A DNA stretch of 64,000 nt, taken from IMG/VR virus record IMGVR_UViG_3300018005_000012, positions 1-64,000 of that record; one strand, given 5' to 3'. Of this stretch, positions 4,653-23,706 are shown piece after piece (position 1 is the stretch's first letter; every line of letters begins with the position of its first letter). A program made the position numbers and the translations under genes. The notes below the pieces were generated by a model, which was not told the DNA's origin, made no database searches, and saw only the letters and a program-made list of their open reading frames with translations. Source of the stretch: a virus.

Positions 4653-4809
4653 CGACTGGTCGCATTTCCATACCACTTCCAACGGAAGCACTGGTTGTGA
4701 GCCGACCTTTATATAAGTCATGTTGCCGGAGGGATGGGTGCTTGAGGGAGGGGTATACGGTATATGGCAAGAAACTACATATCTAGTCCACGCCTATTAT
4801 ATTATTGAG

Positions 4810-4960
4810 GGACTGAGGACACCCAAATGGGTGGTGTGGGTTGACCCGTAATAACGGCAACGGCCCCACTTCAGAACCTTCCGAGTTTGGGAGACGCAGA
4901 CAGTGCGATAGGGTCGGGTCATTCCCGACTTAAACACTCGGTTAAAAAAATCTCCCATTT
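4810..4960 (+). ncRNA. Candidate structured leader or ncRNA ahead of the early operon
   Basis: Hairpins CACCCA-AA-TGGGTG, CCGT-AATA-ACGG, CGCA-GACAG-TGCG and GTCGGG-TCATT-CCCGAC; the last two lie inside the closing stem CCGAGT/ACTCGG. Confidence 0.4.
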
Positions 4961-4965
4961 TTGGC

Positions 4966-5394
4966 TTGAGGAATATGAACACAAATAACCCAAAGGGCGA
5001 GAGAGAACGACAGCCTTCCACCACGGCATTTTCTAGTAGTGGGAAGGGCAATGAAAGGTCGCACATACTCGTGGCCGTTCAAGAGTTGGGCATTCAGTTC
5101 GGTGGCCGACCTAACACCGTGAGGCGTGAGGTTCTCGTGGACATAGGCAATGCCAAGAACCAAGAGGACGCAGAGGTTAAGGCGAAGGCGAGAGCCGCTA
5201 AGAAGTGGCATACAAACGTGGTCTGTCTTCAAGTCTCAGCCGTCAGAATAGCCGAGCCAGTCAAACAAGTGTGGCGGGATTCAGCCGTGGACTCGCATTA
5301 TTCATACCCTGAGACGAAGACACCCAAGCCCGAACCCGTCCAGCAATTCGTTCAAGCAGGGCCTAACTTCTTCATAAAGGTGAGGACTGAGTAA
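4966..5394 (+). CDS. Hypothetical early protein
   Basis: First ORF of a tightly coupled rightward operon. Confidence 0.7.
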   Translation: MRNMNTNNPKGERERQPSTTAFSSSGKGNERSHILVAVQELGIQFGGRPNTVRREVLVDIGNAKNQEDAEVKAKARAAKKWHTNVVCLQVSAVRIAEPVKQVWRDSAVDSHYSYPETKTPKPEPVQQFVQAGPNFFIKVRTE

Positions 5395-5395
5395 A

Positions 5396-5827
5396 TTGGA
5401 AATTCGCATACCTGCCGCAGACTGGATAAAGTTCGGAGAGTTGGCAGAGGACTTACGGGAGTGGAATATCGAGACCCACGTTTCTAAGGGTCATACTATG
5501 CGAAACGGATTCCTGAGTATTCGGGTTAACCTGACTCCCCACTATACCCTAGAGCAATGCGACACTTATCGCAAGATGTCAAACGGGAGAAGGATTTTCG
5601 TACTGTGTTATCACGGACATAAGGCTTGGTTAGACATCCTCTTTCAGAGAATCCCACTGGCGAAGGTTCGTTCAGTGATGACAGAGCAATTTCCAGACCA
5701 CTGGATGACTAAGGCAAACTTTCACAGCATGGCATACCAAATACAATTCGTGAATGTTGGGTCGCAAATGGAACCGCAAGAGTTCGCAGAGCAATGCGAA
5801 TGCAACGAAGGAGAGAGTTCAAATTGA
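5396..5827 (+). CDS. Hypothetical protein
   Basis: Coupled ORF with Cys/His-containing C-terminus. Confidence 0.7.
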   Translation: MEIRIPAADWIKFGELAEDLREWNIETHVSKGHTMRNGFLSIRVNLTPHYTLEQCDTYRKMSNGRRIFVLCYHGHKAWLDILFQRIPLAKVRSVMTEQFPDHWMTKANFHSMAYQIQFVNVGSQMEPQEFAEQCECNEGESSN

Positions 5828-6375
5828 GTCTTCACTTCGATAGACACGGAATGTGGAAGGGCACTAGAAAGTTGGCATCAGTCGGGCCAATTATCCGAGA
5901 CCCAACTCAGCCGTGGCCAGCAATACCGTGGGAGCGAGAACCAACTCAGCCGCAACCCCAAGCAATCCGCATAACCGTGAGAGACACACCGAACTTTGGC
6001 CTAGAGGTCGGGGTCGGGATTAAGGGACTTAAGGGCAATTGGGGTATGACCTTCGCTAAGGGCTATTCAGTGGTGGACGTTAAGAGAATTGCTGAGAATC
6101 TAAAGTCCTTTTCCGAAGTGCGACCTAACGAGTTTCCCTATATGGAAAGCCTAATGGAAGCAATCAGTGAATGCTCAGTCCACGAATTGGTTCATCTATT
6201 TGGCAAAGTCGGGCATTCAAGATACGATAAGTGGAGCAACACAGATTTTAACAACTTAACCACTGCAATGGGTCTCCCCATAAAGCGAAGGATGTTAGAG
6301 GCTGTTAAGAACTATACACCACCCAAGCGGAAGGTTCACACCATCCGAGTCATTGACCTAGAGGGGAGCGAGTGA
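5794..6375 (+). CDS. Hypothetical protein with HExxH motif
   Basis: SVHELVHLFG zincin-like motif. Confidence 0.6.
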   Translation: MRMQRRREFKLSLHFDRHGMWKGTRKLASVGPIIRDPTQPWPAIPWEREPTQPQPQAIRITVRDTPNFGLEVGVGIKGLKGNWGMTFAKGYSVVDVKRIAENLKSFSEVRPNEFPYMESLMEAISECSVHELVHLFGKVGHSRYDKWSNTDFNNLTTAMGLPIKRRMLEAVKNYTPPKRKVHTIRVIDLEGSE

Positions 6376-6376
6376 T

Positions 6377-6574
6377 TTGACCCACTGGATTCACAGTCTC
6401 ATCAGAGAGACTTTAGGCCAGAGATTGCCCCAAGAAGTGTCTAACGAACTTGAAGACATTCTAAGACACGATATTTTTCATTCAACCCTAGACTGGCAGA
6501 CTAAGGAGCAATTACAGGAAGGGATACATATAGCCTATGCGACTTGGCTTCACTTTTGCGGGGGAGTTCTTTAG
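6377..6574 (+). CDS. Hypothetical protein
   Basis: Coupled ORF. Confidence 0.65.
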   Translation: MTHWIHSLIRETLGQRLPQEVSNELEDILRHDIFHSTLDWQTKEQLQEGIHIAYATWLHFCGGVL

Positions 6575-6762
6575 ACTTGGCCGATAAAATCTTAGAGTTC
6601 CACTTTAAGGTCGAGAGACTAGATAAAGCCGTGGCTTATCTTCCAGAGGGAAGAGTTCAGGTCTTTTCAGTCCTACAAACCTTAGACATCTTGACGGATA
6701 AGATACTCGTCTCACCCACCGAAGTTAGACAACTCTTAAAGAGGGTCGGGGTTTCGATTTGA
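6544..6762 (+). CDS. Hypothetical protein
   Basis: ORF in operon; true start probably slightly downstream. Confidence 0.55.
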   Translation: MASLLRGSSLDLADKILEFHFKVERLDKAVAYLPEGRVQVFSVLQTLDILTDKILVSPTEVRQLLKRVGVSI

Positions 6763-7162
6763 GCAAACGATTAGAGACAGTCAACGAGAAGGGCCAGTTA
6801 GATACACCCTATTGGCAGTGCGTCTTTTGTCGGGCCATCTACCCTATGAAAGCGTGGGCTGACAAGTGCGAGAGAGACGACACACTAGGAAGAGGTTTTT
6901 AACATAACACCCACAAAAATGAATCGTAGACATTATAAGCAAGTATGTCCTAACACGGACTCAATGAACACAAACACCTTAAGCCAAGCGGGAGACCGAA
7001 ATAGATGACGTTATCAGACGACCTTCCAGTTAACTATATCCTCACTGAGATAAACGAGACTAAGAAGAGCCTCACTTACAAACAGGTTAAGCCCGAAGAG
7101 ATTCAGGACTTCACAAACGCAAGAAAAGCCCTTCAATCGTATGAAGACTTGGCGATTTTAGT

Positions 7163-8257
7163 ATGACAAACCTTCCTCTAACGTTGGATTGCTTCATGAC
7201 CAACGAAACAACAACCGACACTTTACCAAGTAAAAAGTCAGGATGGATTATAGACGAAAAGCAAAAGACTAGAGAAGACTTCACCGAGTATCTAACAAAC
7301 CGTTTAATGGTCTGCCTAGAGATGGAACTGAATTACAAGACCGGAATACATGACAGCACTATAGAATCAGTCTCTAAAGATGAGTTCGGGGTTGATGCCA
7401 CCGAATACGGATTGCCCGAATGTCCAGTATGCGGAGAGAACGATTGCATTAGACACGACCCACCGAAGACCATCCGAGTGATAAGGCATGACTCCACGGT
7501 GAGAGGAAAGGAAATAATCGTGTGGGGAAGCCCAATATCAACGGAAGAGTTTGCAAAAAGACTCCCACTAGAAAATATCAAAAAATACTTCGTGCCAAGA
7601 CCCCAAGACTCACTACACACACACACACTGATTCCAAACCAGAATAAGGCAATTCCGATTCAAATTGCACAGAACACTTGGCAACTCTTTAGAGCCTATT
7701 ATCCTGCTTGGGTGCATATTTTCGGCAACTACAGAAAGCACTTTCTGAGAAGCAACTGGGCGCAGTGGAAGAATTACCAAGTGAACGCACTAGACACGGC
7801 TTGGTGGCCTTATGCGTGTCACAAATTTCAGGGTGGGCTTCACTTCGCAAATTGCAATAAGGACTACGATGGAAATCTCTCTTCATTCGATGCGGAAATT
7901 CGCACACAGGACGCAAGCACAAACCTAGAGCAAATCGTTTCAGCGAGAGCATTGAGCAAAGCGATTTTCCTTAAGGCCGCACAACTGAGCAATGAGGGAG
8001 TTATCGAGATGCCCGAAGAAAGGAAGGAAATCATTCTCCCAATAATTGAGGCATTGAATAGCGGATGTGCGAAAATTTGGAGAGAGGGCAAGAGGACTTA
8101 CGATATGGAATTAGAATCGAAGCATGGCCGATTCATGAAGGAACTGGCCGCAGAGTTCTTTAGCCAAGTCCGACCCTTACTCTCAGAGTTTGAGGCCAGA
8201 TGCGTGGGTAATTGCATTGCTAATCCTATTAGACTCAGGAGGACAAAATTCGCATGA
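7163..8257 (+). CDS. Putative COOH-NH2 amidoligase (glutamine synthetase/GCS-like fold), paralog 1
   Basis: Motifs CLEMEL, HDSTVRGKEI, SLHTH, AEIRTQDAS; clearly similar to 8549..10123. Confidence 0.75.
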   Translation: MTNLPLTLDCFMTNETTTDTLPSKKSGWIIDEKQKTREDFTEYLTNRLMVCLEMELNYKTGIHDSTIESVSKDEFGVDATEYGLPECPVCGENDCIRHDPPKTIRVIRHDSTVRGKEIIVWGSPISTEEFAKRLPLENIKKYFVPRPQDSLHTHTLIPNQNKAIPIQIAQNTWQLFRAYYPAWVHIFGNYRKHFLRSNWAQWKNYQVNALDTAWWPYACHKFQGGLHFANCNKDYDGNLSSFDAEIRTQDASTNLEQIVSARALSKAIFLKAAQLSNEGVIEMPEERKEIILPIIEALNSGCAKIWREGKRTYDMELESKHGRFMKELAAEFFSQVRPLLSEFEARCVGNCIANPIRLRRTKFA

Positions 8258-8541
8258 CTACCGCAAAATCAAACCGACACATTAAAATACCCTGCGGTGA
8301 AGGTAGAGGCATGAGCAAATCGCAACCGATTCCACTAAAGGTAAAGAACGAAGGTAGAGTGTTCGCTATAACCCTAGCCGTTTCTAAGAATCGGCTTATT
8401 GAATTGCTTCACGGTGAGGGCATGGCAATGGGCGTTATTTCGGTGAGACGGGTCACGGAAGACGAAAAGGACGCACTTGAAGCGGCAAAAGAGGACAATG
8501 ACTATGCCAACACTAAAAGCGATTATGGATTCATGGAGTAA
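8254..8541 (+). CDS. Hypothetical protein
   Basis: ORF between the two amidoligases. Confidence 0.6.
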   Translation: MTTAKSNRHIKIPCGEGRGMSKSQPIPLKVKNEGRVFAITLAVSKNRLIELLHGEGMAMGVISVRRVTEDEKDALEAAKEDNDYANTKSDYGFME

Positions 8542-8548
8542 ATAGAAA

Positions 8549-10123
8549 TTGCTCCCCACCGAGACGATTGAGTTCACAGAAGACCCGATAACGGCAGACG
8601 ACTTAAGCACTCACGAAGGAAGTGCGAGTCATTCCTCTTGTCCCTATTGCGGGGCGAAGGTTTCAAGTCACATGATACCCGAAGAGCCGGACACCGTGGA
8701 GCATGAGCATAGAATCATCGAAAACATACAGATTTGCCGAAGACTCTATGAATGTAATGCTCTAGGACTGACTAACCAATTCTACACTTATCAGGACTTG
8801 AACACTCTAACCAATTGGACTATTGCAAAGGTCGCACAGGGGAAGACCGAGAAAGCAGACGACACCGAGAGGCTTCAATTCGGAAAGAAGAAACTGGCCG
8901 AAGCCATCAAACCCATTTGGCGTTTCAAGACGAAGTTAGCCACGAAAGACGACTTCACCGATTATCTGGCCAAGAATCTAGTCTTAGGGCTAGAATTAGA
9001 GTTCGACTATAAGGATGCACTCGACCCAATTTCAGATTCCGCAGTAAAGCGAGCCTTCGGGGTTAGCACTACAGACTACCATCACCACCCTGAATGTCCG
9101 ATATGCGGAAACGAAATGTGCTGGAACCATCTTCCCGACAACCTGATAAGAGGCATCGAAAGAGATGCTTCAATTCGTGGGTGGGAGTTCTTAATCTACG
9201 GGAGCCATATCTCTAGCGAAGACTTTGCCAAACGTCTACCACTGGCCAAGTTTAGAGACCACTTCATAGTCAACGAGAGAGACGGACTCCACGTTCACGC
9301 CATGCTGAAACACGACATCGCCAGACTACCTAACGTTATCGTGAAGAATTTGTGGCAACTCTTCCGCTATTACTATCCGGCTTGGGTCAATCTCTTCGGC
9401 AACTATTCACAGAGTCAGGGATTCTTGAGACATTCGGGCTATAACGGCCATGACTATGTGACTTTCACATCATTCAGTAAATCGCCTTTCCTAACTCGGT
9501 GGGCACAGGACGTTAAGATGCAAAGATGTGCCCTTTACCTTAAGGAGACACCTATCGAGAACGAAGATATGGATTCATTTGACGTTGAGATTCGGACAAG
9601 TGATGGGAGCATGGATTTGGAACAACTCGTGGCCGTCAGGTCAATCACTAAAGCGTTGATATTGAGAGCCGCACAACTTAGCAACTTCGGACTCATCAGT
9701 GTAGAAAGCAACACCGAAACTTGGGAGAGGGTGAAGGATGTGGTTAGCAAAATCAATCTGAGGTCTGGATTCAAGAAAGACGACATTGAGTTCATGCAAA
9801 AGCATACAGTGAGTTTGGTTAGAGAATTGGCCCCGTTCCTTAGTGAGTTTGAGCGAACCTGCATTAAGCATCTACTTGAAAAACCAGTGAGAGAGCGAGA
9901 GAATCACCCGACATCACACGACTTAGGCTTAGACCTGAGCGAGAACGCCAAGCACCTTAAGAAACTAATTGCTGTCGGTGGCATTGAGACGGACACCGAA
10001 GAGGCGTGGTTCGGGAAGGTCGCACACATAATGGGTCTGCCAACTGACGAAGTTAAGACCGCACTTCGCCAACTAAAGGCGTATTTTGACAACGAAACAC
10101 ACCAAATGGTAGTGATTGGCTAA
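8549..10123 (+). CDS. Putative COOH-NH2 amidoligase, paralog 2, with N-terminal Zn ribbon
   Basis: Motifs LGLELEFD, RDASIRGWEF, GLHVH, DVEIRTSDGS typical of Amidoligase_2-type enzymes. Confidence 0.8.
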   Translation: MLPTETIEFTEDPITADDLSTHEGSASHSSCPYCGAKVSSHMIPEEPDTVEHEHRIIENIQICRRLYECNALGLTNQFYTYQDLNTLTNWTIAKVAQGKTEKADDTERLQFGKKKLAEAIKPIWRFKTKLATKDDFTDYLAKNLVLGLELEFDYKDALDPISDSAVKRAFGVSTTDYHHHPECPICGNEMCWNHLPDNLIRGIERDASIRGWEFLIYGSHISSEDFAKRLPLAKFRDHFIVNERDGLHVHAMLKHDIARLPNVIVKNLWQLFRYYYPAWVNLFGNYSQSQGFLRHSGYNGHDYVTFTSFSKSPFLTRWAQDVKMQRCALYLKETPIENEDMDSFDVEIRTSDGSMDLEQLVAVRSITKALILRAAQLSNFGLISVESNTETWERVKDVVSKINLRSGFKKDDIEFMQKHTVSLVRELAPFLSEFERTCIKHLLEKPVRERENHPTSHDLGLDLSENAKHLKKLIAVGGIETDTEEAWFGKVAHIMGLPTDEVKTALRQLKAYFDNETHQMVVIG

Positions 10124-11797
10124 ATGTGTAGACTAGCACTGATAATCTCGAAAATTCCAGTCAATCGGTTCGAGACCGCATTCAAGTCGGCTTGGGCTGA
10201 TGGCAATGACGATGGCGTGGGAATTTACTGGCGAGACATGGAAGGAACACGACACTTGGCTAGATTCCCGAAGTCGGCAGACTTGGCGAAGGTCGGGACA
10301 ACTTATGACCGAATGCTGATTCACTTCCGCAAATCCACGAAGGGCGAAGGGACTCATCCCTTCACTTGTAAAGACAGACCCAAACTTGACAGTAGAAATT
10401 GGCTTCTCGTTCATAATGGATGTGTGGCAGACGGTGAGGCTAGGAAGGAATTAGAGAAGACCCACACATTTTCGACAGAGATAGACAGCGAGATTTTCAT
10501 TCACATTTGGGGAGAGATTAAGGAAAAAGACTTAGCGAAGAGAGCCAAGAAATTCAGTGAGGCCAGAGAAAAGTTGGGGATAACAGGGTGGGCGAACCTG
10601 ATTTTCTACAACGTGATTTCGGATGAATGGGTCGCATTTAGCGATGGCTCGATAGGTTTTGTTTACAACAAAGATACGCTAATAATTTGCTCGGATGACA
10701 CATGGTTCGACACGATAGAGGCCACCAAACGGAAGATTCACAACTTGGTCTTAGCCACTGGCGATATTGCTTACGGAAAGGGATTGAAGTATAAGGTAAA
10801 GGAGGGCGTTTGGAAGATTCGCTCTGCTATACCGACAACTTCGGCCAGTCTTACAAACGTAGACGGAAGGGCACTTTACCGTGGGTGCGGCATGGACGCA
10901 GATGTGTGGGAGCCAGCGTATGATAAGCCAACACAGAGAAAAGAAGCCGGATGGGATGCCACTGAAAGGTCATTCGTAGATACGAAGGGAAACGCATTAA
11001 ATTGGGATGCTAGTAAACGGGCCTTCGTGGATGCAAAGGGGTATCCCGTAGACAGCAACTACACCCAATATGGCAACCCTAACGGACACTATTTCACACC
11101 TTCAGAGTTCACAGACCAGAATAACGATGAGTATTGCGACATTTGTTTCATGACTAGAGAGTATCACACTCTTAAACCCGCACTTGATAATGACGGGGAT
11201 GACGGAGACGAAGATGCACGAGAGAGAGAGACAGCCGAGATTGACAGTATCGCAAACAGCCGCATTGACGAAAGCGTTTGGAATAGGCCACACCCGTTCA
11301 CTCGCAACTTCAATAAGGGAACCATCACTTGTATGTGTGGTTCAACGGTAAGTTATGGGACATTGCACTTGGCTCACGAGTTCAAGCCTATCATAGCCAA
11401 GAACGGTAAACCAACTTCATATTGTTTCGTTTGTGGCAACATGAAGACTATGGGAAACCATAAGGAAGAAAACTCTGAAACTCACTTCTTTACCCCTCTG
11501 AGATTTGAAGTTAACCAAAGCAACGGCTCGACAACTTATATAGATTCACCCATTTGTGGACGGTGCGGATTCAGAAACGAAGTCCATCCTATGTCTTATA
11601 ACGTTCAAATCAAACAATCTACACAGAGTAGCGAGACAATGAGAGTTGAACGCATGAGGCCGATGGGTTGCGGTTGCAAACCTGACGAGAGACCACAACC
11701 TATTATTTGCACTTATCACTGGGGTCAGGGATTTAGAGATGCAGACAATCAGGGCTATCTCGTCAAAAAGATAGCATTCGATAGTGGGGCAGAGTAA
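10124..11797 (+). CDS. Class II (Ntn) glutamine amidotransferase with C-terminal Zn-knuckle repeats
   Basis: N-terminal MCRL nucleophile, NDDGVG, IHFRKST, THPF, LVHNG, IDSE. Confidence 0.88.
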   Translation: MCRLALIISKIPVNRFETAFKSAWADGNDDGVGIYWRDMEGTRHLARFPKSADLAKVGTTYDRMLIHFRKSTKGEGTHPFTCKDRPKLDSRNWLLVHNGCVADGEARKELEKTHTFSTEIDSEIFIHIWGEIKEKDLAKRAKKFSEAREKLGITGWANLIFYNVISDEWVAFSDGSIGFVYNKDTLIICSDDTWFDTIEATKRKIHNLVLATGDIAYGKGLKYKVKEGVWKIRSAIPTTSASLTNVDGRALYRGCGMDADVWEPAYDKPTQRKEAGWDATERSFVDTKGNALNWDASKRAFVDAKGYPVDSNYTQYGNPNGHYFTPSEFTDQNNDEYCDICFMTREYHTLKPALDNDGDDGDEDARERETAEIDSIANSRIDESVWNRPHPFTRNFNKGTITCMCGSTVSYGTLHLAHEFKPIIAKNGKPTSYCFVCGNMKTMGNHKEENSETHFFTPLRFEVNQSNGSTTYIDSPICGRCGFRNEVHPMSYNVQIKQSTQSSETMRVERMRPMGCGCKPDERPQPIICTYHWGQGFRDADNQGYLVKKIAFDSGAE

Positions 11798-12356
11798 ATT
11801 GGTAGACATCTATATTCGTAAGTCGGGACAGGATGAGAGCCAAATTCCAAAGGGCATCAAGATAAAGGATGATGATAAAAAGATTCGGATTGCGGGAGCC
11901 GTTATCAGAGTCACAGTCATGCCACGGAGATATGGGAATGACTACAAGATTTCGGTTTGGCTTCCAAACGGAAAGCAACTAGAGGCCAGCGATGAGCATG
12001 GGTATATCAACTTCGTGGACTTCGCTAAGGGACTCGTTGAGGCCGCAACTGGAACCAAGCCAAAGGACGGGACAGAGAAGAAGGTTGTGGACATCAACGG
12101 ATTCCCCGCTAAAATCAGTGAGCGAGAGGATGACAAAACCATGACCATTGAAGCAACCATTGACCCATTAGACGAGAACTACTCGATGCCTAAGAAGGAA
12201 GAGGTCAAACCCATTATGCCCCAAGTCCAGAATCAGCCAAGTCTACCTGAGAGAATCAGGGCAGATATGTCAGACGCAAACAAACAGAAGGAGGGCGAAA
12301 CCATTGAAGAATGGGTGGCTCGATTGCAAGATGACGACTTTAGGGGGTATGCCTAG
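11784..12356 (+). CDS. Hypothetical protein
   Basis: Coupled ORF. Confidence 0.7.
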   Translation: MGQSKLVDIYIRKSGQDESQIPKGIKIKDDDKKIRIAGAVIRVTVMPRRYGNDYKISVWLPNGKQLEASDEHGYINFVDFAKGLVEAATGTKPKDGTEKKVVDINGFPAKISEREDDKTMTIEATIDPLDENYSMPKKEEVKPIMPQVQNQPSLPERIRADMSDANKQKEGETIEEWVARLQDDDFRGYA

Positions 12357-12755
12357 ATGCCATCAGGAATCACGAGACGAAGTATAGATAACTACCAAAG
12401 ACTGGTAGCGGGATATAGGCGAAGTGTGGGCAAGTTCATAGCCAATTACAAGAGTCTCGCACCCAAGATAGACATACTGTGCAGACTGATGGAAGCACAA
12501 AAACTTTTCACGATGACTAAGAAGTGGGGCAACCCCATACAAAGGGATGAGGTTATGAGGCTATTTAAGATTCGTTCACTAGGCATTTTCCTTCAATGTA
12601 GATGTGACGATTCGGAATGCAGTTGGGCAAACTACGATGAGGGGGAAGATGTGACCTATTGCGAGTGCATCGCTAACAATGAGATGGGTTGCCGTGGACT
12701 TTTTGTGGTGGCATTTGACCATGAGGGCAACGTATTAGGATACGAAGTAGAATGA
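12357..12755 (+). CDS. Cys-rich hypothetical protein
   Basis: CRCDDSEC-W...CEC...C motif, also present in the N-terminus of 12752..13768. Confidence 0.7.
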   Translation: MPSGITRRSIDNYQRLVAGYRRSVGKFIANYKSLAPKIDILCRLMEAQKLFTMTKKWGNPIQRDEVMRLFKIRSLGIFLQCRCDDSECSWANYDEGEDVTYCECIANNEMGCRGLFVVAFDHEGNVLGYEVE

Positions 12756-13768
12756 TACTCAAACTCGGCTTCGGAGAGACCTGTGCTGTGAAAGAGTTAG
12801 AGTTGGCCCACGAAGAATTAGTAAACCACACTTCGCCAAATGAGCGAGACATTCAGACTTACGCATTGACTGAGACAGTCCGACTTCTCAACTTTAGAGT
12901 GCGGTGTATGTGTCATGATGTAAGATGTAATTGGTGGGACAGAGGGGCTTGTAGATGCAACGGGGCTTTGAATTGTCTACATATAGGCTTCGAGATAAGG
13001 AATACTGATGAAATAAATCTAATCACAGACGGGGAAACGGAAACGGCCAAGAGACAGATTCCTCAAGACCATTTGGAACGACAACCCAACGAAGCCTTCA
13101 TTGTTTGGAAGGTCAGGGTGGCTTACGAAGTCTACCAAAGGGCCAGTGAGATTCATAATATGCCAGAGGATGGCATAGTTCAGTATCGGTATGAGAATTG
13201 GAGAGAGGAACCCATTGACGAAAGACGCAACAACTTCGAGAGAACGGTGAACGATGTGAGAGGGATAGGGGTTGAGAGACATGGCAACATGAGCCAAGTG
13301 GTGGGTTGCTTCTCATGTGGCAGAATCTTCGAGAACGAAACCTATCTCAATGCTCATGTTGATTTGCACAGATACAGGGAAGAGGTTGACCACACCTTTG
13401 CACAAATAGTCACACCTATTTCCGTCTCTTCAGTAAGAGCAACTCCACCCGACTACCGACCACCTATCCCCGTTGTCGCACCCACACCCACACCAACAAG
13501 ACGGCCAAGAGCAATCCATCGTAGTCCCATACGAATTGACCAAATAGACCGAGAATCAGACGAGAGTGATGACCACTTTAGAGAGGCCGTTGCAAACTTC
13601 GTTGAAGACATTAGAGGTGGAGATGGAGACCGTGGCGAATTTCCAGAGGCAGTGGGTTGTTCCTTATGCGGTGCTGTCTACACAACTGAGAGCGACTACT
13701 TCGCCCATGCAGTTGATGACCACGTTCTCACCCTTTCAGAATCAGAGAGATATGAGGTAAACCCATGA
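12752..13768 (+). CDS. Multi-Zn-finger protein (two C2H2 fingers)
   Basis: CFSCGRIFENETYLNAHVDLH and CSLCGAVYTTESDYFAHAVDDH. Confidence 0.75.
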   Translation: MILKLGFGETCAVKELELAHEELVNHTSPNERDIQTYALTETVRLLNFRVRCMCHDVRCNWWDRGACRCNGALNCLHIGFEIRNTDEINLITDGETETAKRQIPQDHLERQPNEAFIVWKVRVAYEVYQRASEIHNMPEDGIVQYRYENWREEPIDERRNNFERTVNDVRGIGVERHGNMSQVVGCFSCGRIFENETYLNAHVDLHRYREEVDHTFAQIVTPISVSSVRATPPDYRPPIPVVAPTPTPTRRPRAIHRSPIRIDQIDRESDESDDHFREAVANFVEDIRGGDGDRGEFPEAVGCSLCGAVYTTESDYFAHAVDDHVLTLSESERYEVNP

Positions 13769-14550
13769 CCCCTCTCATTGTCTTCGTAGATTGTGGTCTC
13801 TCGCTCTCAGAAACGCCAGACCGCATTATCTCACGGCTTGAAGAGAAGGGACTAAGAGTTGTGAGGAATCCACGAGAGAGACCCACTGAAGACTATGTGG
13901 TGATTCGATGGGGGTCGGCCAGATTCCCTGAGTTGGATGCGACAGCGAAAGCCGTCCTCAACTCTGCCGAAGCCATCGAATCCAATCTCCATAAGAACAG
14001 GGCACACGCCAAATTTTTAGAGGCCGAAGTCAGTGCCCCGCTATTCTGGCGAACCTTTAGAGAGGCAAGAGAAGAGTGCCGAAGGTTAGGGTGCGACTTC
14101 CTGCGGAGACGCACACACCACATTCAGGGTCGGGACATCATTCGCCTAAGTCCTACTGACCACTTGAAACGTAGACAGAGAAGTGGATACTACGTTCAAT
14201 ACATAGAGAAGGATGCAGAGTTCAGACTTCACATCTTCGGAGACAAGTGCATAGGCTTGGCCGAAAAGAAGCCAAAGGAGAATCCTAACAAGACTATTTG
14301 GAACTTTGAAAATGGGTGGGATTTAGTCTACTACCCACAAGAGGATAGAGAGAGTGAGGTTCCCCACTACAACAAGATGGTGGCTGAATCGGTAAAGGCA
14401 TTGAAGAGTCTGGGTCTGGACTTTGGTGCGGTGGACTTGATAATGTGCGGAGACAAACCGTATATCCTAGAGGCTAACACGAGTCCTAAGTTGTATCAGA
14501 CCAAACGCTACACCAAGCATTTCGAGAGATGGGTGGAGAGCCAAGCATGA
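13765..14550 (+). CDS. ATP-grasp ligase (phage RimK/YheCD-like)
   Basis: VIRWG, VQYIEKDAEFRLH, LGLDFGAVD, YILEANTSP. Confidence 0.88.
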   Translation: MTPLIVFVDCGLSLSETPDRIISRLEEKGLRVVRNPRERPTEDYVVIRWGSARFPELDATAKAVLNSAEAIESNLHKNRAHAKFLEAEVSAPLFWRTFREAREECRRLGCDFLRRRTHHIQGRDIIRLSPTDHLKRRQRSGYYVQYIEKDAEFRLHIFGDKCIGLAEKKPKENPNKTIWNFENGWDLVYYPQEDRESEVPHYNKMVAESVKALKSLGLDFGAVDLIMCGDKPYILEANTSPKLYQTKRYTKHFERWVESQA

Positions 14551-14782
14551 GACCTGAAGCAATCCGTCACTTGGAAATCTACCGAAGACCTATCTGGGGT
14601 TGCCGTTGCACAGAGGATAGTGTGAAGGGTATGGAGACCGAAGGAACGAAGACCGAGAGTATATGGGAATTTCTACTAGATGAAGTTAAACCAAGTGACC
14701 ATTTGCCGTGGTGGGAATGGTGCGCTCAAAAAGACTTGATGGAAGAGCAAATGATTCTCAACTACTCGGATGGGTATGGCGC

Positions 14783-15193
14783 ATGAGCAATCGCCAATAC
14801 GGACATCAAGAGAATTGTTCGGGTTATATTCCCGAAGAACTTTGGAGAGCAATTAACAAAGTTTACGAATACACTGGAAACGAGCCGAGATACAATCTTG
14901 TTGCCAGAACTAAAGTGGCTGGCCCACGACCTGATAGATGTCAATTTCCAAATTGCACTAAGCCAGCAACCGATAGGGCACATAAGATTCCATACAAATA
15001 CTATAGGATTCTTGGTCTATGCCCTCGATGCGTTCTTGATGTTTCGACAAATTTAGTGTGGACTTGTCATGAACATAATTACTTGGTAGAGTTATCAGAG
15101 TCAGAATGTCTCAACGAACTTAAGAAGAAAGGCGTTAAGTTAGCACCCTACTTGAATGATACTTTTACAAACTCCCAGAGGGAGATAACATGA
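14783..15193 (+). CDS. HNH-like nuclease
   Basis: CQFPNC...DRAHKIP...NLVWTCHEHN; ATG 14783 overlaps the upstream stop. Confidence 0.6.
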   Translation: MSNRQYGHQENCSGYIPEELWRAINKVYEYTGNEPRYNLVARTKVAGPRPDRCQFPNCTKPATDRAHKIPYKYYRILGLCPRCVLDVSTNLVWTCHEHNYLVELSESECLNELKKKGVKLAPYLNDTFTNSQREIT

Positions 15194-15583
15194 GCAATCT
15201 ACTAATATCTGGAACGGTGTGTCCGAAGTGCGAGTCCCAAGATTGGGGATGGCGAACAGAAGACGAATACGTTCCGCAGGGGAAGAGAAAATGCTACACT
15301 TGCGGCCAACTCTTCTGGGTCTCCGATAAGCCTAGTGAGTCTAGTCTTCCAATGGGAAAGATGTTAGCATGACCGACAAACTTGTAGTGGGGCTTGGCAT
15401 CGTGGTCTTCATATTTGGTATACTCTGGACTGTGATGGCCTTTGGGCCTAATTGCTATGCCCCACCAGACAACTTTCTTTCGGTAGCAACTTGTCAAACT
15501 TCTCAAAACATGGGGGGAAATGATGGGATGGTTGTGGCCCTTATGGGAATAGTAGTTGCCATCATTGGAAAGAGGATGCAAAC

Positions 15584-15955
15584 ATGAGTCTCATTAAGTT
15601 CAACGACCCTGAAAGGAACGAATTGATGCTCACATATTGGGCCAACATTCTAGCATTCATTGACCCCAAACACATAGATGTCATTGTCATTTCTGGCGAT
15701 TGGCATAAAGTGAGGGGAGACAAATGGGTGAGATTCATGAAGGTCTATTGCCACGAAATTCTCCATGTGTCTCTCTCAGAAATCGGACAGGAAAAGGCAT
15801 CGCACAAGTTGGACGGCCTTTACGAACTCTTCGTCTCATTCGAGAAGGATAACAGTGCCAAGCACTACAGGTATACAGGTCTGCCCTATTATCTCATCGA
15901 GATGTTGCCGCATTTGAAGAGAGGGAAGATACCCAAGTGGATGTTGAAAGCATGA
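15584..15955 (+). CDS. Hypothetical protein with HExxH motif
   Basis: YCHEILHV. Confidence 0.55.
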   Translation: MSLIKFNDPERNELMLTYWANILAFIDPKHIDVIVISGDWHKVRGDKWVRFMKVYCHEILHVSLSEIGQEKASHKLDGLYELFVSFEKDNSAKHYRYTGLPYYLIEMLPHLKRGKIPKWMLKA

Positions 15956-16237
15956 TTCAAAGGCCAGTCTGCACAAACACCTTTCATACGAAGATGCGGA
16001 ATCAGAATTGGTGGTTCCTATCTATGGCCACGCACTATTATGTGTCGAAGTGGGTCGCATGACACCCCGTTTTTGGATTCAATGTTGGAAATGTGGGCGA
16101 GATGCACAAGCCTACTTCGATACGGGCCAAGCATGGTGTGATTCCTGTATGGAGGAAGTAGCAAATTGCACCTGCCAATCTTTGACATTTCGCCAAAAAG
16201 ACCTAAGTAGTCTAGTCACCATAGGGGAGTATAGGAT

Positions 16238-16663
16238 ATGACAACGAATAAGAACACCATAAGAAGGACGAAGATAGGAGAAGTATGCGTAGATACAGGG
16301 TCACTTGTCATCTGTGACCCATGCAATCTCGCTGAAATGACCGCTAAACTTGATGTGGAAACGTGCATTAAGATGATAGGCAATAAGGGGAAGGACTTTG
16401 GCGTAGTTCAAGACCGGACAGGTAAAGTGACTACATGGGGAAAGAACGCACCAATGGGAATCATCTCAAGGGCTGGATTGGGCGATGGCTTCTATCCAGT
16501 CTATGCAATCACAGACGAGTTGGGTGGTTGGGGTAGACGGGTAATGGCTCTCGAAATTGACCTCTCTCCGACCAAGCCGCAGATTGCCTATCTCAAGAGT
16601 TTGAGACACAAAACTATGCAAAACGACAAAAAAGCCTATAAAGGTCGCAGACAGAGGGTATAG
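16238..16663 (+). CDS. DUF4241-like protein
   Basis: GEVCVDTGSLVICDP and GLGDGFYPVYA motifs. Confidence 0.65.
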   Translation: MTTNKNTIRRTKIGEVCVDTGSLVICDPCNLAEMTAKLDVETCIKMIGNKGKDFGVVQDRTGKVTTWGKNAPMGIISRAGLGDGFYPVYAITDELGGWGRRVMALEIDLSPTKPQIAYLKSLRHKTMQNDKKAYKGRRQRV

Positions 16664-19316
16664 TATATGACCAAAGAAGAACAAAAACTGTTGGTGGGAC
16701 GGGAGATAGACGGCCTAGCCCAACTTGTAAAGGACATTGTGGACGGGCCAAGTGAGGGGAGCGAGAAGTAGTGGCCCACATCTTTACACGAGACGAACTA
16801 ATAGCCCTATTAGCGAAATGCCCAGAGGGTGGTGGTGTTTGTGCCTCTTGCGGAGACACTTTCACGAAAGAACAGTTAAAGAAGGGTGAGGAGCCAGAGT
16901 TCACTTCTTGTGAGTGTGATAACGATGACTAAGTTCCCCATGACAATCGTGGACTCGGCAACGAGAATCCATGTAGTAAGGCGAAGTCCGACAGGGTATT
17001 ACACTTGCGATGTTTGCCTCAACTCTTTCACACGAGAAGAGTTGGAGAAGACCCATGAAGTTGTCAACCCAAATGCTTATAAGGGATGGAATGTGGGGAG
17101 ATAGTATGACCTACATCGCTACCTATAGAGATGGTAAAGTGATTCTCAAAGGAGAGGTAGATGGTTGGTATCTTGCGTGGGCTTACAAACAAGCAAAGAA
17201 GGAAGCCAAAAATAACGGATGGATACTGCTAAGTGTCGAGCCAAAGGACTATCCACCTATCCCTCAGATAGTTCATTCTGAGAAACCGAGAGGAGAACGG
17301 TGGGAACGGCCCATCTTAAGAGCGAAGATAGCATGACGGGTCTCTACAGAGTGACTTACTTCATTGGAACCCCCGACTCTCAGATTAAGATAAGTGAGAT
17401 GCTCGATGCCAACAGTGCAGAAGAGGCCATTGCCTTAGTCAAAGCCAAACACCCCACGGACTTGGGGAAAATATCATCGGTGGCCATGCTCAGATGACAA
17501 GAGAAGCATTCAAGCCTATCGTCTTTCTCAAGCCCAAGTCAGTGACCATCGAGAACTTGATACAGGGAGCGATGTGTCTAGTCGTGGACAGTAAGGGATG
17601 GACACATACCTTCTACACTCGTGTAGACTCAGTATCCATGAATGAACGGACAGACATCTCACGCAAAGTCAAGAAAGGGCGATTGACAGAATGAAAGCCA
17701 CTCGTAACGAATCAGCCAAGACCTTCATACTCGAAGCCGACTCGGAAGACCTAGAGACAATTCTTAATGCTCTTGAATTTGCTCATGCAAAATGGTGGTT
17801 CCCAAAGCCAGCAAAGAGAGCCATAACAATGTATGACAAACTCAGAGAAGACTTGAATGTAGACTTCAATTCAGATGGTGAATTAGTTCTACAATGAGAC
17901 CCAAAGGCAAGATGCGAAGCCCACACAAGAAGGAATGGTGTCCAGAGCATGGGATTCACCATTGCACAACACACGGCAAACACAAGAGAGGCCGGAGAAT
18001 AGGGCCATGAAATATCGTTGCTGGAAATGCAAAACTGTTCTTGATGGAAGTTTAGAGGACTTTCTGAAGCACGAATCCAAATGTGATTGTAATGCTTTCG
18101 ATAATATCGAAGATGAGGCAATAAAGCCATGACTGAAGAAGTTCCCTGCCCCTTCTGTGCGACAACGTGTAGTTCCGATTGGAGTCTACGGGCACACATG
18201 AAACAACAACATGGTCTTCCATAATGGCTCGTGGATACGTCAAGAATAGGATACGAAGTGCCCCTCACTACTATGTCACGTTGCGTGACGTAGAAGAGCC
18301 GCCTCACGAAGCCAAAGGCATTAAGGGATTGGTCATGGACTTGAAGTTGGACTTTCGCCCACAAGCAGACATCGAAGATTACATGGACGTTCCATCGGAG
18401 TCTGTTAGTGGAGTTAGTCAGATGTTTCTAGGGCTTGAGATGGATGAGGTTCAAGCCATCCTTCGCTATCTCAACACCCACGGAATGTTTAAGAGCGAGT
18501 GGTTCCAAGCCCTTACTAGGGGAGAAAGCGTATGACCAAAGGGTACGATGAAGAAAATTGTCCGTGGGACTGTTGTCCACTCGGATGTCACTGTCAAGAT
18601 TGTGTGGGATGCACACCGGAGATGGACTAATTGCATAAGCGGACTGACCACTACAGTTGTGACCACAATGTTCAAAACAGTGAGGGCATCAATTTCCTCA
18701 AGTGTCCTCTCTGCCATGTGGGAGACTACAACGGCTCACTGGTTGAGTCAGATGGGAGAGAGGAACCAGAGGCTAGGATAGTTCAAGAGCCTAATTCCTA
18801 TACCGAGTATGCGTATGGACAATTCGGTGGAGCATCAGAAATCCATCGAAATCCAGATGGAACCTATGGGACATCAATCTTGCAACCAATCAATCCTGCT
18901 CAATGGGCAAGTATCTCTAGTGCTTCAACCGCAAGCGTAACACCACAAGCCTACACATCCTTTTCCATCAGCCCACCCCAAACAGTAAGCAATGGTGGAA
19001 CCGTGGCCTTTGATGGTTCGGCTTATGTTGAAACACAATCAATACCGGAAGGCCATCCCTTCCCATCTTCAGACCACGACCCTGCCACTTGTCGGATTTG
19101 CATAGTCGCAAGACGAAGAGAAGAAGAGCATGATGAAGAGATAGACATCGAGAACCACGAGAACTACAGTGAGACAAATGGCCAAGAGTAAAGAGAAGGT
19201 TGTGTGTTGGAGATGTGGAGGAGAGGTAGTCTCCATAAAGAAGTTCCTCATGTGCAAAGAATGTGGGGCGTTGAGCAGTTGATACCACAACCTTTAAAAG
19301 GGTCACAAACGAAGGG

Positions 19317-19418
19317 ATGCCGTTGAGCCAAGAAGATGGGGAGTTAGAAGACGAGGACTTTGACGAAGACTTCGATGAAGAGGGCTTCGAGCAAGAAAGC
19401 GAGGAAGAGGACTTATAA
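19317..19418 (+). CDS. 33-aa hyper-acidic peptide (not in ORF track)
   Basis: MPLSQEDGELEDEDFDEDFDEEGFEQESEEEDL; own TTTAAAA...AGGG promoter; stop overlaps the next ATG. Confidence 0.65.
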   Translation: MPLSQEDGELEDEDFDEDFDEEGFEQESEEEDL

Positions 19419-19424
19419 TGCCAA

Positions 19425-20261
19425 GTGAATATCACTGGCGATGCACGAGTTGTGGTGTCCTCATCATCGAGAAGACTAGAGACTCGTGGGAAGAGACCAA
19501 GAAACATACGCTTCGGTGCAAAAGCGAGGGCTTTCATCTTGAGCCGTAAGCCGTTTCATCGAAAGGTTTGGCTGGCCTTTCGACTCATTCCTAACGAGAA
19601 AACCTATACTTGTAGCGGAATGCTTACACGAAACAAAATAGACAAAGAGGCTGGCATTGAGGAAGGAATCATAGGTGGTGTGGAGATTGGCCAAGACGAA
19701 ATTGAGAGACGGGACTTTCTCGGTGGAGAAGTGGAATATGGATTTGAGCAAAAGGTTCTCCATTTACAATGGATTCCCTTTGCAGAGAGACCAGACAAAG
19801 GAATTGACTTCATTTCCCCACCAGACATCATCAGCCAAGTGAAAGGCAGAAGTTCATGGATTGCAGACTGTGGCTTGGGTAGAGAACTCTGGCCACATAG
19901 GGCTGAGATATTCATAGTGTGCCAACAGCATAATGACGACCCCACTGTTTACGTTGTCAAAGGGTGGTTCACAAAAGAAATGTTCTTTGAGAGACACATT
20001 CACTACGACAATAAGCAACACTTGGGAGATTGCTTCATAACAACTTCATGCCCCTATTGTGGCAAAGGTGGAAAGGGTGAAAGAATAGGCCAACCGTGGA
20101 TACAAGACGAAGACTTAGAGCCTATAGACACCTATCTTCAAGAATATTGGCCAGAGAAACTACGAGAACTCTATGAACGAATGAAGCAAACTGGCAATGG
20201 TCAACTACTAATAGAGGAAGACTGTAGCAGAATGTTTATTAAGGGTGCGGAGATAGGGTAG
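19425..20261 (+). CDS. Hypothetical protein, possibly PD-(D/E)xK-like nuclease
   Basis: Long ORF with GEVEYG...DKGIDF...QVKG pattern; true start probably internal. Confidence 0.4.
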   Translation: MNITGDARVVVSSSSRRLETRGKRPRNIRFGAKARAFILSRKPFHRKVWLAFRLIPNEKTYTCSGMLTRNKIDKEAGIEEGIIGGVEIGQDEIERRDFLGGEVEYGFEQKVLHLQWIPFAERPDKGIDFISPPDIISQVKGRSSWIADCGLGRELWPHRAEIFIVCQQHNDDPTVYVVKGWFTKEMFFERHIHYDNKQHLGDCFITTSCPYCGKGGKGERIGQPWIQDEDLEPIDTYLQEYWPEKLRELYERMKQTGNGQLLIEEDCSRMFIKGAEIG

Positions 20262-23200
20262 GCCATGAGAAAAGACGACATCATTGCAGTGGTCATAGTC
20301 GTGGTAGCGGTCATCTTCATGGCTTGGGCTATCTCAACGTGGGGGTATTCACCATGAGCAAAGACGATGCTCCCTACTTACAAGATGTAAAGGAGTTGGA
20401 AGCCTTTCTGAAGGGATACAAACGAGATGTCCACATGACAGCGAAGGTGTTATCAGCATTGGCAAAGTCAATGGACGCACACCCTCAACTGAGGCTAGGG
20501 CAGTTGCTTGTAGCGGTAATCAAGAAAGCCTATCCCAACGATGAGGGATTTGAAGGACGTTTGTTCTACATCTACGATGAAGATTTCGTGAATGCCATAA
20601 ACGCATTTGATGGTGAGTTAATAGTATGAGGTCTTGTGCGTGGTGCGGGATGGACATTCCAGAGGATACACACATACAGGTGACGGAGTTCCACACTTGC
20701 GGCTCTACGACTTGGGACTTTGACAACTACGATTGCATACCCTTCTGGCTAAAGGCCAATTGTAAGACCGATGTTCTCGGTGAGTTGCATGAGTCTTGAA
20801 ACACCGCACCTCAACCTCTCCATCAGCATCTACGTTGACGGAGCACTTGCCGCAGAAGTCACGAAGGAAGACGCTCCCCTATTTCAAGAAGCCTACCGAA
20901 GACTCTTCCCTACTGCCACCATTGAATCCTTTACCGTCCTCCAATTGGCTAAGAAACGAAAGAAGGCCGAAAGGGAAGCCCAAGAAACCCCACAGGAAGG
21001 ATTGGAAGTAGAGTGATAGCAACTATAAAGGCATGGATAGCGGGTTCGTTCATACACTTGTCAGCCGCCCTCATAACAATCTTTCTCTGCTTAAACTACA
21101 GCCGCATCCACGAAGCAGGACTCCTCAATGTCTACCTCATAAATGGTGGATTGACATGGGCTATCGCTCCTGTGCAAGCGATACTCGCTTTCGTCATCTT
21201 AGGAGTTATCCTGATTTTCAACAAGAAGGAGATATTCGTAGCAAAGGCCATAGTGAGTATGTATGTCATCATGTTCGCTTACGACCTATTTCTCAATGTC
21301 TACTTCTTAATGTGGGTGGGGGCAATATGAGATTCTCTACCAAGTTCTGGCTATTTGCCATGCTGTTCCTTCTTGCTTCCTACTTCACAGCATCCGTCAT
21401 ACTGCTTGTCCTCTTCTTTAGTCTTGTAATAGTGGCTCTCTATGGAGCCGCCTACTATCGAGGAAAGGAAGTTGCAATTGCGGCCATTGAGAAGGCCAAG
21501 TTGGAGATAGGAAGCAACCTCAAGTGTGAACTCTGTGGGGCCGTTCCTCACCTGACGGAACTAGACAACAAGTTCGTGTGCGATGCTTGTATGCTCAAAC
21601 ACTGGGCATCACATTGTCCAGTGTGTGGAATGGATGTGCCACTTGAGGATGTGAAGGGGAGACTAAACCACTTGAACGAGCATGAGAAGAAGGGAGAGAT
21701 ATGAGAGATAGAGTTCACTGGAAGCCTACCAAGTATGAGAGAGTCATTGACCGTAAGGACATCATGGAGAGGATTGACTGTAAGGAGTGCGGCTTCATTG
21801 CAGTTGGTAGACTCAGAAAAGGAGAGGAGTGTAGGGCTTGTGGCTCGAAACAGATGGGTGAATACTTGGGCACAGCAACCGGACTTGTCACTGGAGACTT
21901 TAAGTTGATGATGAGTCACCTTATCAAAATGGGAGTGAAAGTCATATGAAATACTCCTATCACTTGGTCATTCCACCAAAGCCAGAGGAACCTGAAACGC
22001 TCACAGAACCCGAACAACACGCAACGGTAGAAAGTTTATTAAGGCTGTTGACAGAGGGTAAGGGGCATGAGTGAACTAGAAGAGTTGGCAGAGAAACTGT
22101 CAAAGGCAAAAGCACCCAACAACATGGGGCCATATGGCGAGTGGAACTACTACAGAATAGCCGACATTGACGGGGTCATTGCAGACTTGAAGAAACTCAG
22201 TAAGACTAAACAAGCCAAAACCTATGGCACAGGTTACGGTGCAAACGGGCCTATAATATGACCAAAGAGGAGTGGGAATTGATGGAATATCTCTGGCTTT
22301 TGGGTCTTCAACATCCCGATGAGTTATGGAAGTGGGTATACCATGTCTGCTACATCAAAGATTGGTCGAAATACTGTCCAGTGTGTTGGAAGGATATGTC
22401 ACTTGATGATACCAAAGCGAGGGTAGACCACATAGCCAAGCATAAAAAGAGGGGGGCGGGGTGGATAGAATGAGTGGTGATATTCAATGTGTATTCGGTA
22501 TCATAATAATGTTTCTAGGAGTGGCTTCTTTCATCACCAGTCCACAGTCGTTGCTGGCCGCTTGTATGTATGGAGGTGGCCTAATCGTGTTAGGAATGGG
22601 TTTGGGTGACTCGAAGTGAGTGAAGCACTTAAGGCGAGAGACAAGATGACCAAACTTGAAGAGGTCGAACCTAAGTTGGAGTCTGTGGCAGTTGAAGCGG
22701 AACGTGCCCATGCCACCATAAAACTGTCAGAGATAGATGCTGAGTTGGCTAAGGAGATAACCACAGACCGCAGAAACGCTCTTCTCAAAGAGAGGCTAGA
22801 TGTCCTAGTGGGGTTGATGAAACGAAGATGAAAGTGAGAGGCGGCAATAGGAGTTTCGAGTTCATCGTAAGCAATCAGGGAACGCTAACCTATACTGACA
22901 AGAAGAATCTTAAGAGGCAACTTCAATTGAGGAACAAGACTGGCCATTCGGTTTCAGTCAGACTCAGCCGAAGGAAGATGATTTTGGTGACTATCAAATG
23001 AAAGCGTTTGTTTACGACATCACCATATCGGAAAGTGTGATGGACATGATGCACGGATTCACCTACGACATAAGAGAACTCTACGTTCCTGACCTTAAGA
23101 TATACGCCAACTTGGGTGGCCAACAGGGGCAGATATTCGTCTACCAAAACGATGAGAAGAGATGGAAAACAGGACACAACTTCAAAGATGTGACCATCAC

Positions 23201-23706
23201 ACCAAAGTTCGCCAAGATGCTAAAGCAGGCTTTGAGAAGCAAGAATCTAGAGAAAGAACTAAAGAGGGTTCTAGCATGACCCACCAAGTCGTTACAGTTT
23301 GGATTGATTGGGAAGGGGTTCAAATGGCCATCTGCACTTGTGGCTTCTACACTAAAGTTCAGGACATCCAAGAGCATATTGAGAGGCACAACAAATCATG
23401 ACTTTTGCGAGACGCAAAAAGTGGAACGTAATAAAGAAGCGAAGGAAGATTTCCCATCAGAAGGTCATTGAGAATCGGGCCAATAAGGAGAAGAAGAAGG
23501 AATGAATCCCCCAAGTAAGCGAGAGCAGAATAGGATACTGGCCTTCCTTTGGGCTATGTGCGTCATCGGCTTCCTCACCATCTGTGCCATCTGGATGTCG
23601 AGTGTATTATGACCAAATGCGATTGTGGGTCGGGCCTACCAATGCTTGGGGTCTGTCAAATCTGTTTCCAAACCTACTGTGAGAAATGCAAAGGAGACCA
23701 TAGAAG

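Follow-up and report, generated by a model that had tools for sequence, protein, structure and literature searches.

Nine-gene operon with two amidoligases, a class-II amidotransferase and an ATP-grasp ligase in an archaeal virus, a predicted counterpart of the phiEco32-type cassette

What would a set of amide-bond-forming enzymes act on in a virus of an archaeon? The question is raised by the IMG/VR virus record IMGVR_UViG_3300018005_000012 (91,434 bp, linear, estimated 79% complete), of which the first 64 kb were analysed here and are called the window. At 7005-14550 the window carries nine adjoining or overlapping open reading frames (ORFs) on the + strand, including two carboxylate-amine ligases (AL1 and AL2), a class-II glutamine amidotransferase (GAT) and an ATP-grasp ligase. 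We predict that this operon is the archaeal-virus counterpart of the phiEco32-type amidoligase cassette. With moderate confidence, most of which rests on the identity of the cassette, we favour the reading that it acts on a protein acceptor, likeliest an acidic C-terminal tail, for which the small protein g95 is the first candidate.

The four enzyme ORFs that an earlier note had placed here were confirmed, and they have the following features (lengths in amino acids, aa).

7163-8257, + strand: AL1, 364-aa ligase with predicted glutamine-synthetase/glutamate-cysteine-ligase (GS/GCL) fold; the short paralogue, without N- or C-terminal extensions
7421-7456, + strand: CCCH (CxxCG..C..H) insert of AL1, residues 87-98, sequence LPECPVCGENDCIRH
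8549-10123, + strand: AL2, 524-aa ligase with predicted GS/GCL fold, paralogue of AL1; N-terminal extension (residues 1-120) with a CxxC element and C-terminal extension (residues 455-524)
9095-9130, + strand: CCCH insert of AL2, residues 183-194, sequence HPECPICGNEMCWNH
10124-11797, + strand: GAT, 557 aa; N-terminal class-II (N-terminal nucleophile, Ntn) glutamine amidotransferase domain at about residues 1-235; in the C-terminal half, by pattern search, four H..[FY]..P...CxxC...H modules (residues 322-488) and a CxC...C..H knuckle (residues 516-532)
13765-14550, + strand: RimK-like ATP-grasp ligase, 261 aa

The identities given in the earlier note hold for all of them, and each was reached in a different way. 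For the ligases no profile library was of use. AL1 and AL2 matched nothing in Pfam, PHROG, NCBIfam or PADLOC, tblastn of AL1 found no match among 50,697 phage records, and blastn of the whole region found none either. Family profiles searched against PDB sequences retrieved no ligase, neither PafA nor Dop. The fold was assigned through structure comparison. The AlphaFold2 model of AL1, built from an eight-sequence alignment, had a predicted local distance difference test score (pLDDT) of 81.6 and a predicted template modelling score of 0.84. Compared with VIA, it matched YbdK (1tt4; Z 16.0, root-mean-square deviation 3.7, 255 aligned), plant glutamate-cysteine ligase (2gwc; Z 15.7), PafA (4bjr) and Dop (Z 12.5-12.6) and glutamine synthetases (Z 9.4-11.0). 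Eighteen chains of this superfamily scored Z of at least 8, against 4.8 for the best unrelated chain, and Foldseek agreed (E 6e-5 to 1e-3). From this model we assign AL1 to the GS/GCL fold. The CCCH insert of AL1 was modelled less confidently (pLDDT 62-69).

A profile search of 1.84 billion representatives returned 129 ligase relatives (cluster representatives) at E <=0.001, and a Pfam scan of 44 of them revealed no relevant domain. Across 47 aligned members including AL1 and AL2, the residues E53, E55, D110, E117, H152, N171, E245 and R247 are invariant, the kind of strand-borne acidic, His and Arg residues expected of a GS-type fold. When the profile of these 47 sequences was aligned by hhalign with five phage proteins of the Amidoligase_2 family (PF12224), the probability was 96.7% (E 3.6e-10, 171 columns), and the motifs D-G-S..G-E, H-x-H, N and E-x-R stayed in register. 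Only the deeper profiles succeeded; a shallow ligase profile against the single ligases of phage O4 was negative. Alignment with a set of type-2 ligases (COOH-NH2_lig, PF14395) was also negative, with a probability of 0.4%. The AL1/AL2 family would thus be a remote branch of the Amidoligase_2 lineage that Pfam does not cover.

Both ligases carry the putative zinc-insert motif that had been noticed before, as read in their sequences. The insert occurs in most of the near clade and is absent from P0012 and from the distant bacterial-phage clade. The two ligases share 37% identity over 344 aa (E 4e-71). In a maximum-likelihood tree (quick search, midpoint root) the AL1 orthologues form one clade and the AL2 orthologues another, with support of 99 each in the Shimodaira-Hasegawa-like approximate likelihood ratio test, and the same viruses group within each clade; therefore the duplication predates these viruses. 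The claim that the ligase is duplicated stands as far as paralogy goes, but a pair of GS-fold ligases is normal in the bacterial cassette and only the pairing within one family differs. Over the full length, AL2 and its orthologues share 48-78% identity. The extension at the C-terminus of AL2 (window 9911-10120) recurs in the distant bacterial-phage clade, and its profile weakly resembles the GntR/FadR winged helix-turn-helix (PDB 8pqm, E 0.044), with an HTH_8 match in one relative (E 0.0023); as a module of the ligase it may bind nucleic acid or protein. At the contig end of the related locus L031 (9414-10531), AL2 is divided between the strands (C-terminal part on -, N-terminal part on +), which points either to an inversion or to an artefact of assembly where the contig ends.

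The amidotransferase was recognised by its motifs; its Pfam scores lie just under the cut-offs (GATase_6, 26.8 bits with a cut-off of 27; GATase_4, 22.9 bits with a cut-off of 23). GAT starts with Met-Cys, and R69 (in H-F-R-K-S/A-T-K-G), N98-G99 (H-N-G) and D121 (I-D-S-E) are invariant in five orthologues. From enzymes of the GlmS/PurF type, we take the N-terminal Cys to be the nucleophile, R69 and D121 to bind glutamine, and the N-G pair to provide the oxyanion residues. Cys2 is retained at the DNA level in all five orthologues. In two of them (L003:13068-13073 and L004:3512-3517) the codon directly before this Cys is an Ile codon instead of ATG; translation of these genes probably begins at a rare ATH codon, which would keep Met-Cys at the N-terminus of the protein. 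We found no synthase domain in GAT. The terminal CxC..C..H element is retained in five of five orthologues, and four of five GATs from bacterial cassettes (L011-L015, last 35 residues; the exception is that of the Alcaligenes phage) end in a small CxxC-type Cys element. The ancestral cassette may therefore already have had an amidotransferase with a zinc knuckle at its end.

The ATP-grasp ligase is the most conserved gene of the module (57-83% identity) and its most direct link with bacterial phages. It matches phrog_2599 (E 9.8e-33), and tblastn found it in 166 phage records, mostly phiEco32-like, PA11-like and 7-11-like, at 25-31% identity over 80-95% of the length. BLASTP against the ATP-grasp proteins of five bacterial cassettes gave E values from 3e-24 to 3e-12. 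In the joint alignment R114, G122, E152, R154, H156, K168, D224, E236 and N238 are invariant, and the joint profile searched against solved structures placed RimK first (5zct, E 1.6e-7). The score with TIGR00768 (rimK_fam; E 1.8e-5, 24.3 bits) is below the curated cut-off of 143.4, and the match to the archaeal MptN glutamate ligase in NCBIfam is likewise sub-threshold.

The five annotated bacterial cassettes belong to Pseudomonas phage O4, Cronobacter phage A24, Alcaligenes phage QDWS535, Escherichia phage NJ01 (Kuravirus) and Salmonella phage 7-11. They share one gene order: type-2 ligase (PF14395), a protein of about 200 aa, Amidoligase_2, class-II GAT, one or two small proteins, and ATP-grasp. 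A gamma-glutamyl cyclotransferase (GGCT) is usually nearby, and primase/helicase and DNA polymerase genes are close. This type of cassette is said in later papers to have been predicted in 2009 by Iyer, Abhiman, Burroughs and Aravind (Mol Biosyst 5:1636); we found no experimental paper on its product in the literature. In BLASTP of the operon proteins against the bacterial cassette proteins only the ATP-grasp matched. With the homologous ATP-grasp, the remote Amidoligase_2 relationship of the ligases and the same gene order, the parallel with phiEco32-type neighbourhoods drawn in the earlier note is borne out.

The outcome that the earlier note named as refuting it, a lack of co-occurrence of these genes in relatives, was not borne out. 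The module genes occur together in every related contig of sufficient length. All of them recur in the same neighbourhood in four viral contigs (33-83% identity) and in further metagenome contigs, and an operon of eight to nine genes is conserved in L003, L004, L006, L007, L018, L020, L024, L029 and L031. Within this archaeal-virus clade the ATP-grasp gene shifts position relative to two small genes, g132 and ZnF338. A distant locus, L026 (913-4419), holds a minimal version in which a single AL2-like ligase, bearing a C2H2-like finger at its N-terminus, occurs with a 147-aa ORF and a 258-aa GAT; a protein with a KxDGxR nucleotidyl-transferase (DNA/RNA ligase-like) motif comes after this GAT. 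In the bacterial-phage loci L008-L010, the ligase is accompanied by an Ntn GAT of 261-316 aa and a GGACT protein beside DnaB.

The virus is a tailed virus, as indicated by genes for a portal, a large terminase, a family-B DNA polymerase and a HerA/A32-type ATPase in the record. To its host, two features of the record are relevant. The octamer YTTWAATA occurs 19 times in the genome, with 6.4 copies expected, and 12 of the 19 are spaced 25-40 nt upstream of an ORF's first start codon, where about one would be expected and at most five were seen in 1000 random placements. Such spacing is that of an archaeal TATA box before leaderless or short-leader mRNAs, and therefore supports an archaeal host. 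The record also contains a uS2 gene that matches the archaeal/eukaryotic model TIGR01012 over nearly its full length (E 2.3e-38), against a match to the bacterial model in the C-terminus only (E 1.7e-13). We accept an archaeon as the predicted host, in agreement with the earlier note.

The same octamer bears on transcription. It is absent from the + strand inside 7005-14550, and GGAGG-like motifs precede the start codons of several internal operon genes; together these fit one transcript for the block. More widely, no copy was found on the + strand in about 4700-24600 of the window, some 20 kb of co-oriented small genes including the module, whereas most genes outside this part have the octamer ahead of the start, at a distance of about 30 nt. 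Either a single, very long operon or a different promoter class may account for this block.

The host also bears on the oldest proposal for the cassette. The 2009 phiEco32 study is reportedly the source of the idea that the enzymes modify the cell envelope and block superinfection, and the proposal has been repeated in later papers. Archaea lack bacterial peptidoglycan. An archaeal host therefore argues against peptidoglycan as the target, and none of the nine operon proteins has a signal or membrane segment (maximum Kyte-Doolittle 19-residue, KD19, hydrophobicity 1.18). On these two grounds cell-wall modification was rejected, and we regard an envelope function of any kind as extremely improbable. 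That an intact cassette is present in archaeal viruses means, therefore, that the cassette does not need peptidoglycan; its target is probably something that bacteria and archaea have in common, or else something that the virus itself brings.

The operon also contains no export or transport gene. We describe it as, by prediction, a co-transcribed and cytoplasmic set of three ATP-dependent amide-bond ligases and a glutamine-hydrolysing Ntn amidotransferase, whose catalytic motifs appear intact. Five more conserved genes accompany the first four.

7005-7166, + strand: 53-aa acidic protein whose stop overlaps the AL1 start; no family match
8254-8541, + strand: g95, 95 aa; basic N-terminus, then a conserved core (about 45 aa) and an acidic tail with the C-terminus ...DYGFME
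11784-12356, + strand: g190, 190 aa; conserved N-terminal domain of about 130 aa, variable acidic linker, C-terminus ...GY[A/W/Y]
12357-12755, + strand: g132, 132 aa, with a six-Cys cluster; conserved in all complete loci
12752-13768, + strand: ZnF338, 338 aa; N-terminal six-Cys domain, conserved middle domain, two C2H2 fingers and a Pro-rich linker

Judged from the chemistry of the folds, each ligase would activate a carboxylate as an acyl-phosphate and join it to an amine. GAT would either supply ammonia from free glutamine, so that an activated carboxylate becomes a carboxamide, or cleave a gamma-glutamyl amide. The acceptor would be a protein and not the cell envelope, and an acidic C-terminal tail would be extended or capped with Glu/Gln-type units, as RimK extends ribosomal protein S6. 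The zinc modules, which are found on every enzyme and on co-encoded proteins, could serve as docking elements.

Among the operon proteins g95 is the candidate carrier, tag or docking partner. No connection with the operon is known for the substrates suggested in the earlier note (LANxxEL proteins, the poly-acidic peptide, glycans), and g95, as part of the operon, is better placed. Wherever it occurs, its gene separates the two ligase genes, and its net charge by thirds is +5, +3 and -7. In eight of ten distinct orthologues the tail has an aromatic residue followed, one to three residues on, by a terminal Glu; the tail sequences differ, the Glu-ending ones being GFME, GFAE, GVME, RWNE, FSEGE, YEGE and TWSE. 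The protein has one Cys and no Cys ribbon, and its AlphaFold2 model is weak (pLDDT 62, disordered ends). Three known systems offer a pattern for such a tail. The LysW tail ends EDWGE, and LysX is a RimK-family ligase that uses LysW as carrier; the RimK substrate S6 has a Glu-rich end; and Pup is encoded next to the GS-fold enzyme Dop. By analogy, g95 might be a virus-encoded carrier or tag whose terminal-Glu carboxylate is activated by one of the three ligases. Its tail would then be extended or amidated as in RimK and LysX/LysW; alternatively, as in the Pup system, it would be attached to lysines of proteins from the host or the virus. This specific proposal is tentative, and we think it rather improbable in this exact form.

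Several observations weigh against a protein acceptor and against g95 in particular. The acceptor itself is putative. YbdK and GCL, which come closest in structure, have small-molecule substrates. The Arg and Asp of GAT are presumably those that hold the alpha-carboxylate and alpha-amino groups of free glutamine in GlmS-type enzymes, and this would fit small-molecule chemistry equally well. The Pfam Amidoligase_2 model (PF12224) matched neither AL1 nor AL2, nor the 44 relatives, nor anything in the whole virus record. The PF14395 hidden Markov model found no match in the record either, though control genomes were equally blank, and no GGCT (PF06094, GGACT/AIG2) was matched in the 91-kb record, itself 79% complete; in both respects the pathway may differ from the bacterial one. 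As for g95, two of ten orthologues end in Gly, in the complete L007 record there is only a distant relative, which lacks the tail and lies just downstream of the ATP-grasp gene, and no counterpart was found in the bacterial cassettes.

Much of this would suit a small-molecule product. The ligases would build a free gamma-glutamyl amide or a short non-ribosomal peptide, such as a polyamine or amino-acid conjugate, GAT would supply ammonia or recycle the gamma-glutamyl group, and the small proteins would be scaffolds or regulators. The top structural matches are small-molecule ligases, GAT retains the residues for binding free glutamine, and the bacterial-phage relatives pair the ligase and GAT with a GGCT, which acts on small gamma-glutamyl compounds. 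However, no such cyclotransferase was found in the 91-kb record of the archaeal virus, and there are no export or transport genes and no membrane segments. Zinc-finger, C2H2 and possible winged-helix modules on or beside every enzyme would be unusual for metabolite synthases, and RimK, the nearest relative of the ATP-grasp ligase, acts on a protein. A small-molecule product is possible, and we take it seriously while doubting it.

Returning to a protein acceptor, the acidic tails of g95 and g190, with their aromatic residues, could also be read as docking motifs like those of single-stranded DNA-binding protein (SSB), not as substrates. Their role would be to recruit the enzymes to a nucleoprotein or replication complex, and the protein modified there would be a DNA-associated one of the host or the virus. 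The bacterial-phage cassettes adjoin primase/helicase and DNA polymerase genes. In Cronobacter phage A24 (L012:8137-8385) and Salmonella phage 7-11 (L015:9115-9372) the small protein encoded directly after the ATP-grasp has the C-terminus GFDD[D/K]IPF, the motif found at the tail of bacterial SSB, which hints that the bacterial cassette may dock on SSB partners. C2H2 fingers and a possible winged helix are present in the archaeal-virus operon, and in L026 a tail is fused to the enzyme: this GAT ends in a strongly acidic ...EVWE similar to the g95 tail, an arrangement compatible with a docking role as much as with a substrate role. On the other side, the five bacterial GATs examined all lack a terminal SSB tail, and neither g95 nor g190 matches an SSB or OB-fold family. 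We also know of no archaeal partner for an SSB-like tail, which counts against docking of this kind. We consider it unlikely.

The position of the bacterial cassettes beside replication genes, and the modules typical of nucleic-acid binding in the operon, could also be taken to mean that the enzymes modify viral DNA or nucleotides by attaching an amino acid or amide to a base. However, no ThyA- or ThyX-type pyrimidine hydroxymethylase was found in the record (about 79% complete), for which reason DNA hypermodification was judged unlikely, and the operon lacks a kinase, transferase or glycosylase. With these taken together, we give such a function very little credence.

The other small proteins of the operon are well conserved. 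The 53-aa protein is kept upstream of AL1 in L003, L005, L018, L020 and L028 (E about 1e-16 to 1e-18). g190 directly follows GAT in every complete locus, and six of seven sequences end in GY[AWY]; it found no match in the family libraries, in the ESM Atlas or by hhalign, and hhalign also gave a negative result for the roughly 200-aa protein encoded between the bacterial ligases. ZnF338 is kept in all complete loci at 33-50% identity. Its two fingers match zf-C2H2 (E 8.6e-5 and 6.8e-4), and the ESM Atlas returned only C2H2 proteins for it, a generic signal. The N-terminus of ZnF338 (12752-12980) aligned with g132 by hhalign (62%, E 7.4e-5) with all six Cys in register, so the two appear to be a tandem pair of a Cys-cluster module not described before.

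Outside the operon, the window encodes at 25327-25941 a protein matching RlaP (PF10127; E 3.2e-9), a pol-beta-type nucleotidyltransferase of the RNA-repair pathway. At 27692-29632 on the - strand lies a 646-aa HerA/poxvirus-A32-like ATPase with zinc-ribbon matches in its N-terminal half. Besides this ATPase the same virus has a classical large terminase at 60040-61593.

What is new here is the fold assignment for a ligase family that Pfam does not cover, the paralogue in the place of the type-2 ligase, the nine-gene anatomy of the operon and the g95 hypothesis. The phiEco32-type cassette is widespread in lytic phages, the ATP-grasp alone being found in the 166 phage records given above, and g95 gives a concrete candidate substrate that can be checked by intact-mass spectrometry. 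If g95 were a carrier or tag, this would be the first case of a virus encoding a small-protein conjugation or carrier system that relies on GS-fold ligases, and it could offer a route to the product of the widespread cassette.

An amidoligase module is present in this archaeal virus as the earlier note had claimed, but it is not the first. In Vyasavirus brisbanense, a marine virus of Poseidoniales (Marine Group II), an amidoligase and a GATase have been annotated as auxiliary metabolic genes and discussed with phiEco32 in a 2025 paper (PMC11706807). In the available part of that paper, ATP-grasp appears only in a cited title (PMC11706807). The likeness with the window, set side by side by annotation only, is that amidoligase and glutamine amidotransferase genes occur in an archaeal tailed virus (PMC11706807).

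Among solved structures RimK is the nearest to the ATP-grasp of the window, which nevertheless scores below the RimK family cut-offs. The PafA/Dop/Pup system also has a paralogous GS-fold pair beside a small protein whose flexible C-terminal end finishes in Glu. This likeness is at the level of the fold only; there is no sequence homology to PafA, Dop or Pup, YbdK and GCL score above PafA, the g95 tail lacks a GGQ/GGE end, and no proteasome genes are present. To LysX/LysW the likeness lies in the acidic tail of g95, whose aromatic residue and terminal Glu resemble the LysW tail; g95 differs in having no LysW-type zinc ribbon, the operon has none of the LysZ, Y, J and K enzymes, and the terminal Glu is not universal.

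The closest comparison is with the phiEco32-type cassette, whose members also include Pseudomonas phages PA11 and TC6. The window differs in that both its ligases belong to one family as paralogues, while PF14395 and PF12224 make up the bacterial pair, and the class-I GATase/peptidase C26 of the bacterial cassette was not found in the window virus. The window operon, in an archaeal host, adds g95, g190, two Cys-cluster/C2H2 proteins, the CCCH inserts and the string of zinc modules on GAT, and four of its extra conserved proteins have no bacterial counterpart. What the two have in common is a non-structural gene block with the order ligase, small gene, ligase, GAT, small genes and ATP-grasp. 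In both, the two ligases have the GS fold, the class-II GAT (400-660 aa) is Cys-rich in its C-terminal part, and the ATP-grasp is RimK/R2K-like and directly homologous between them (25-31% identity).

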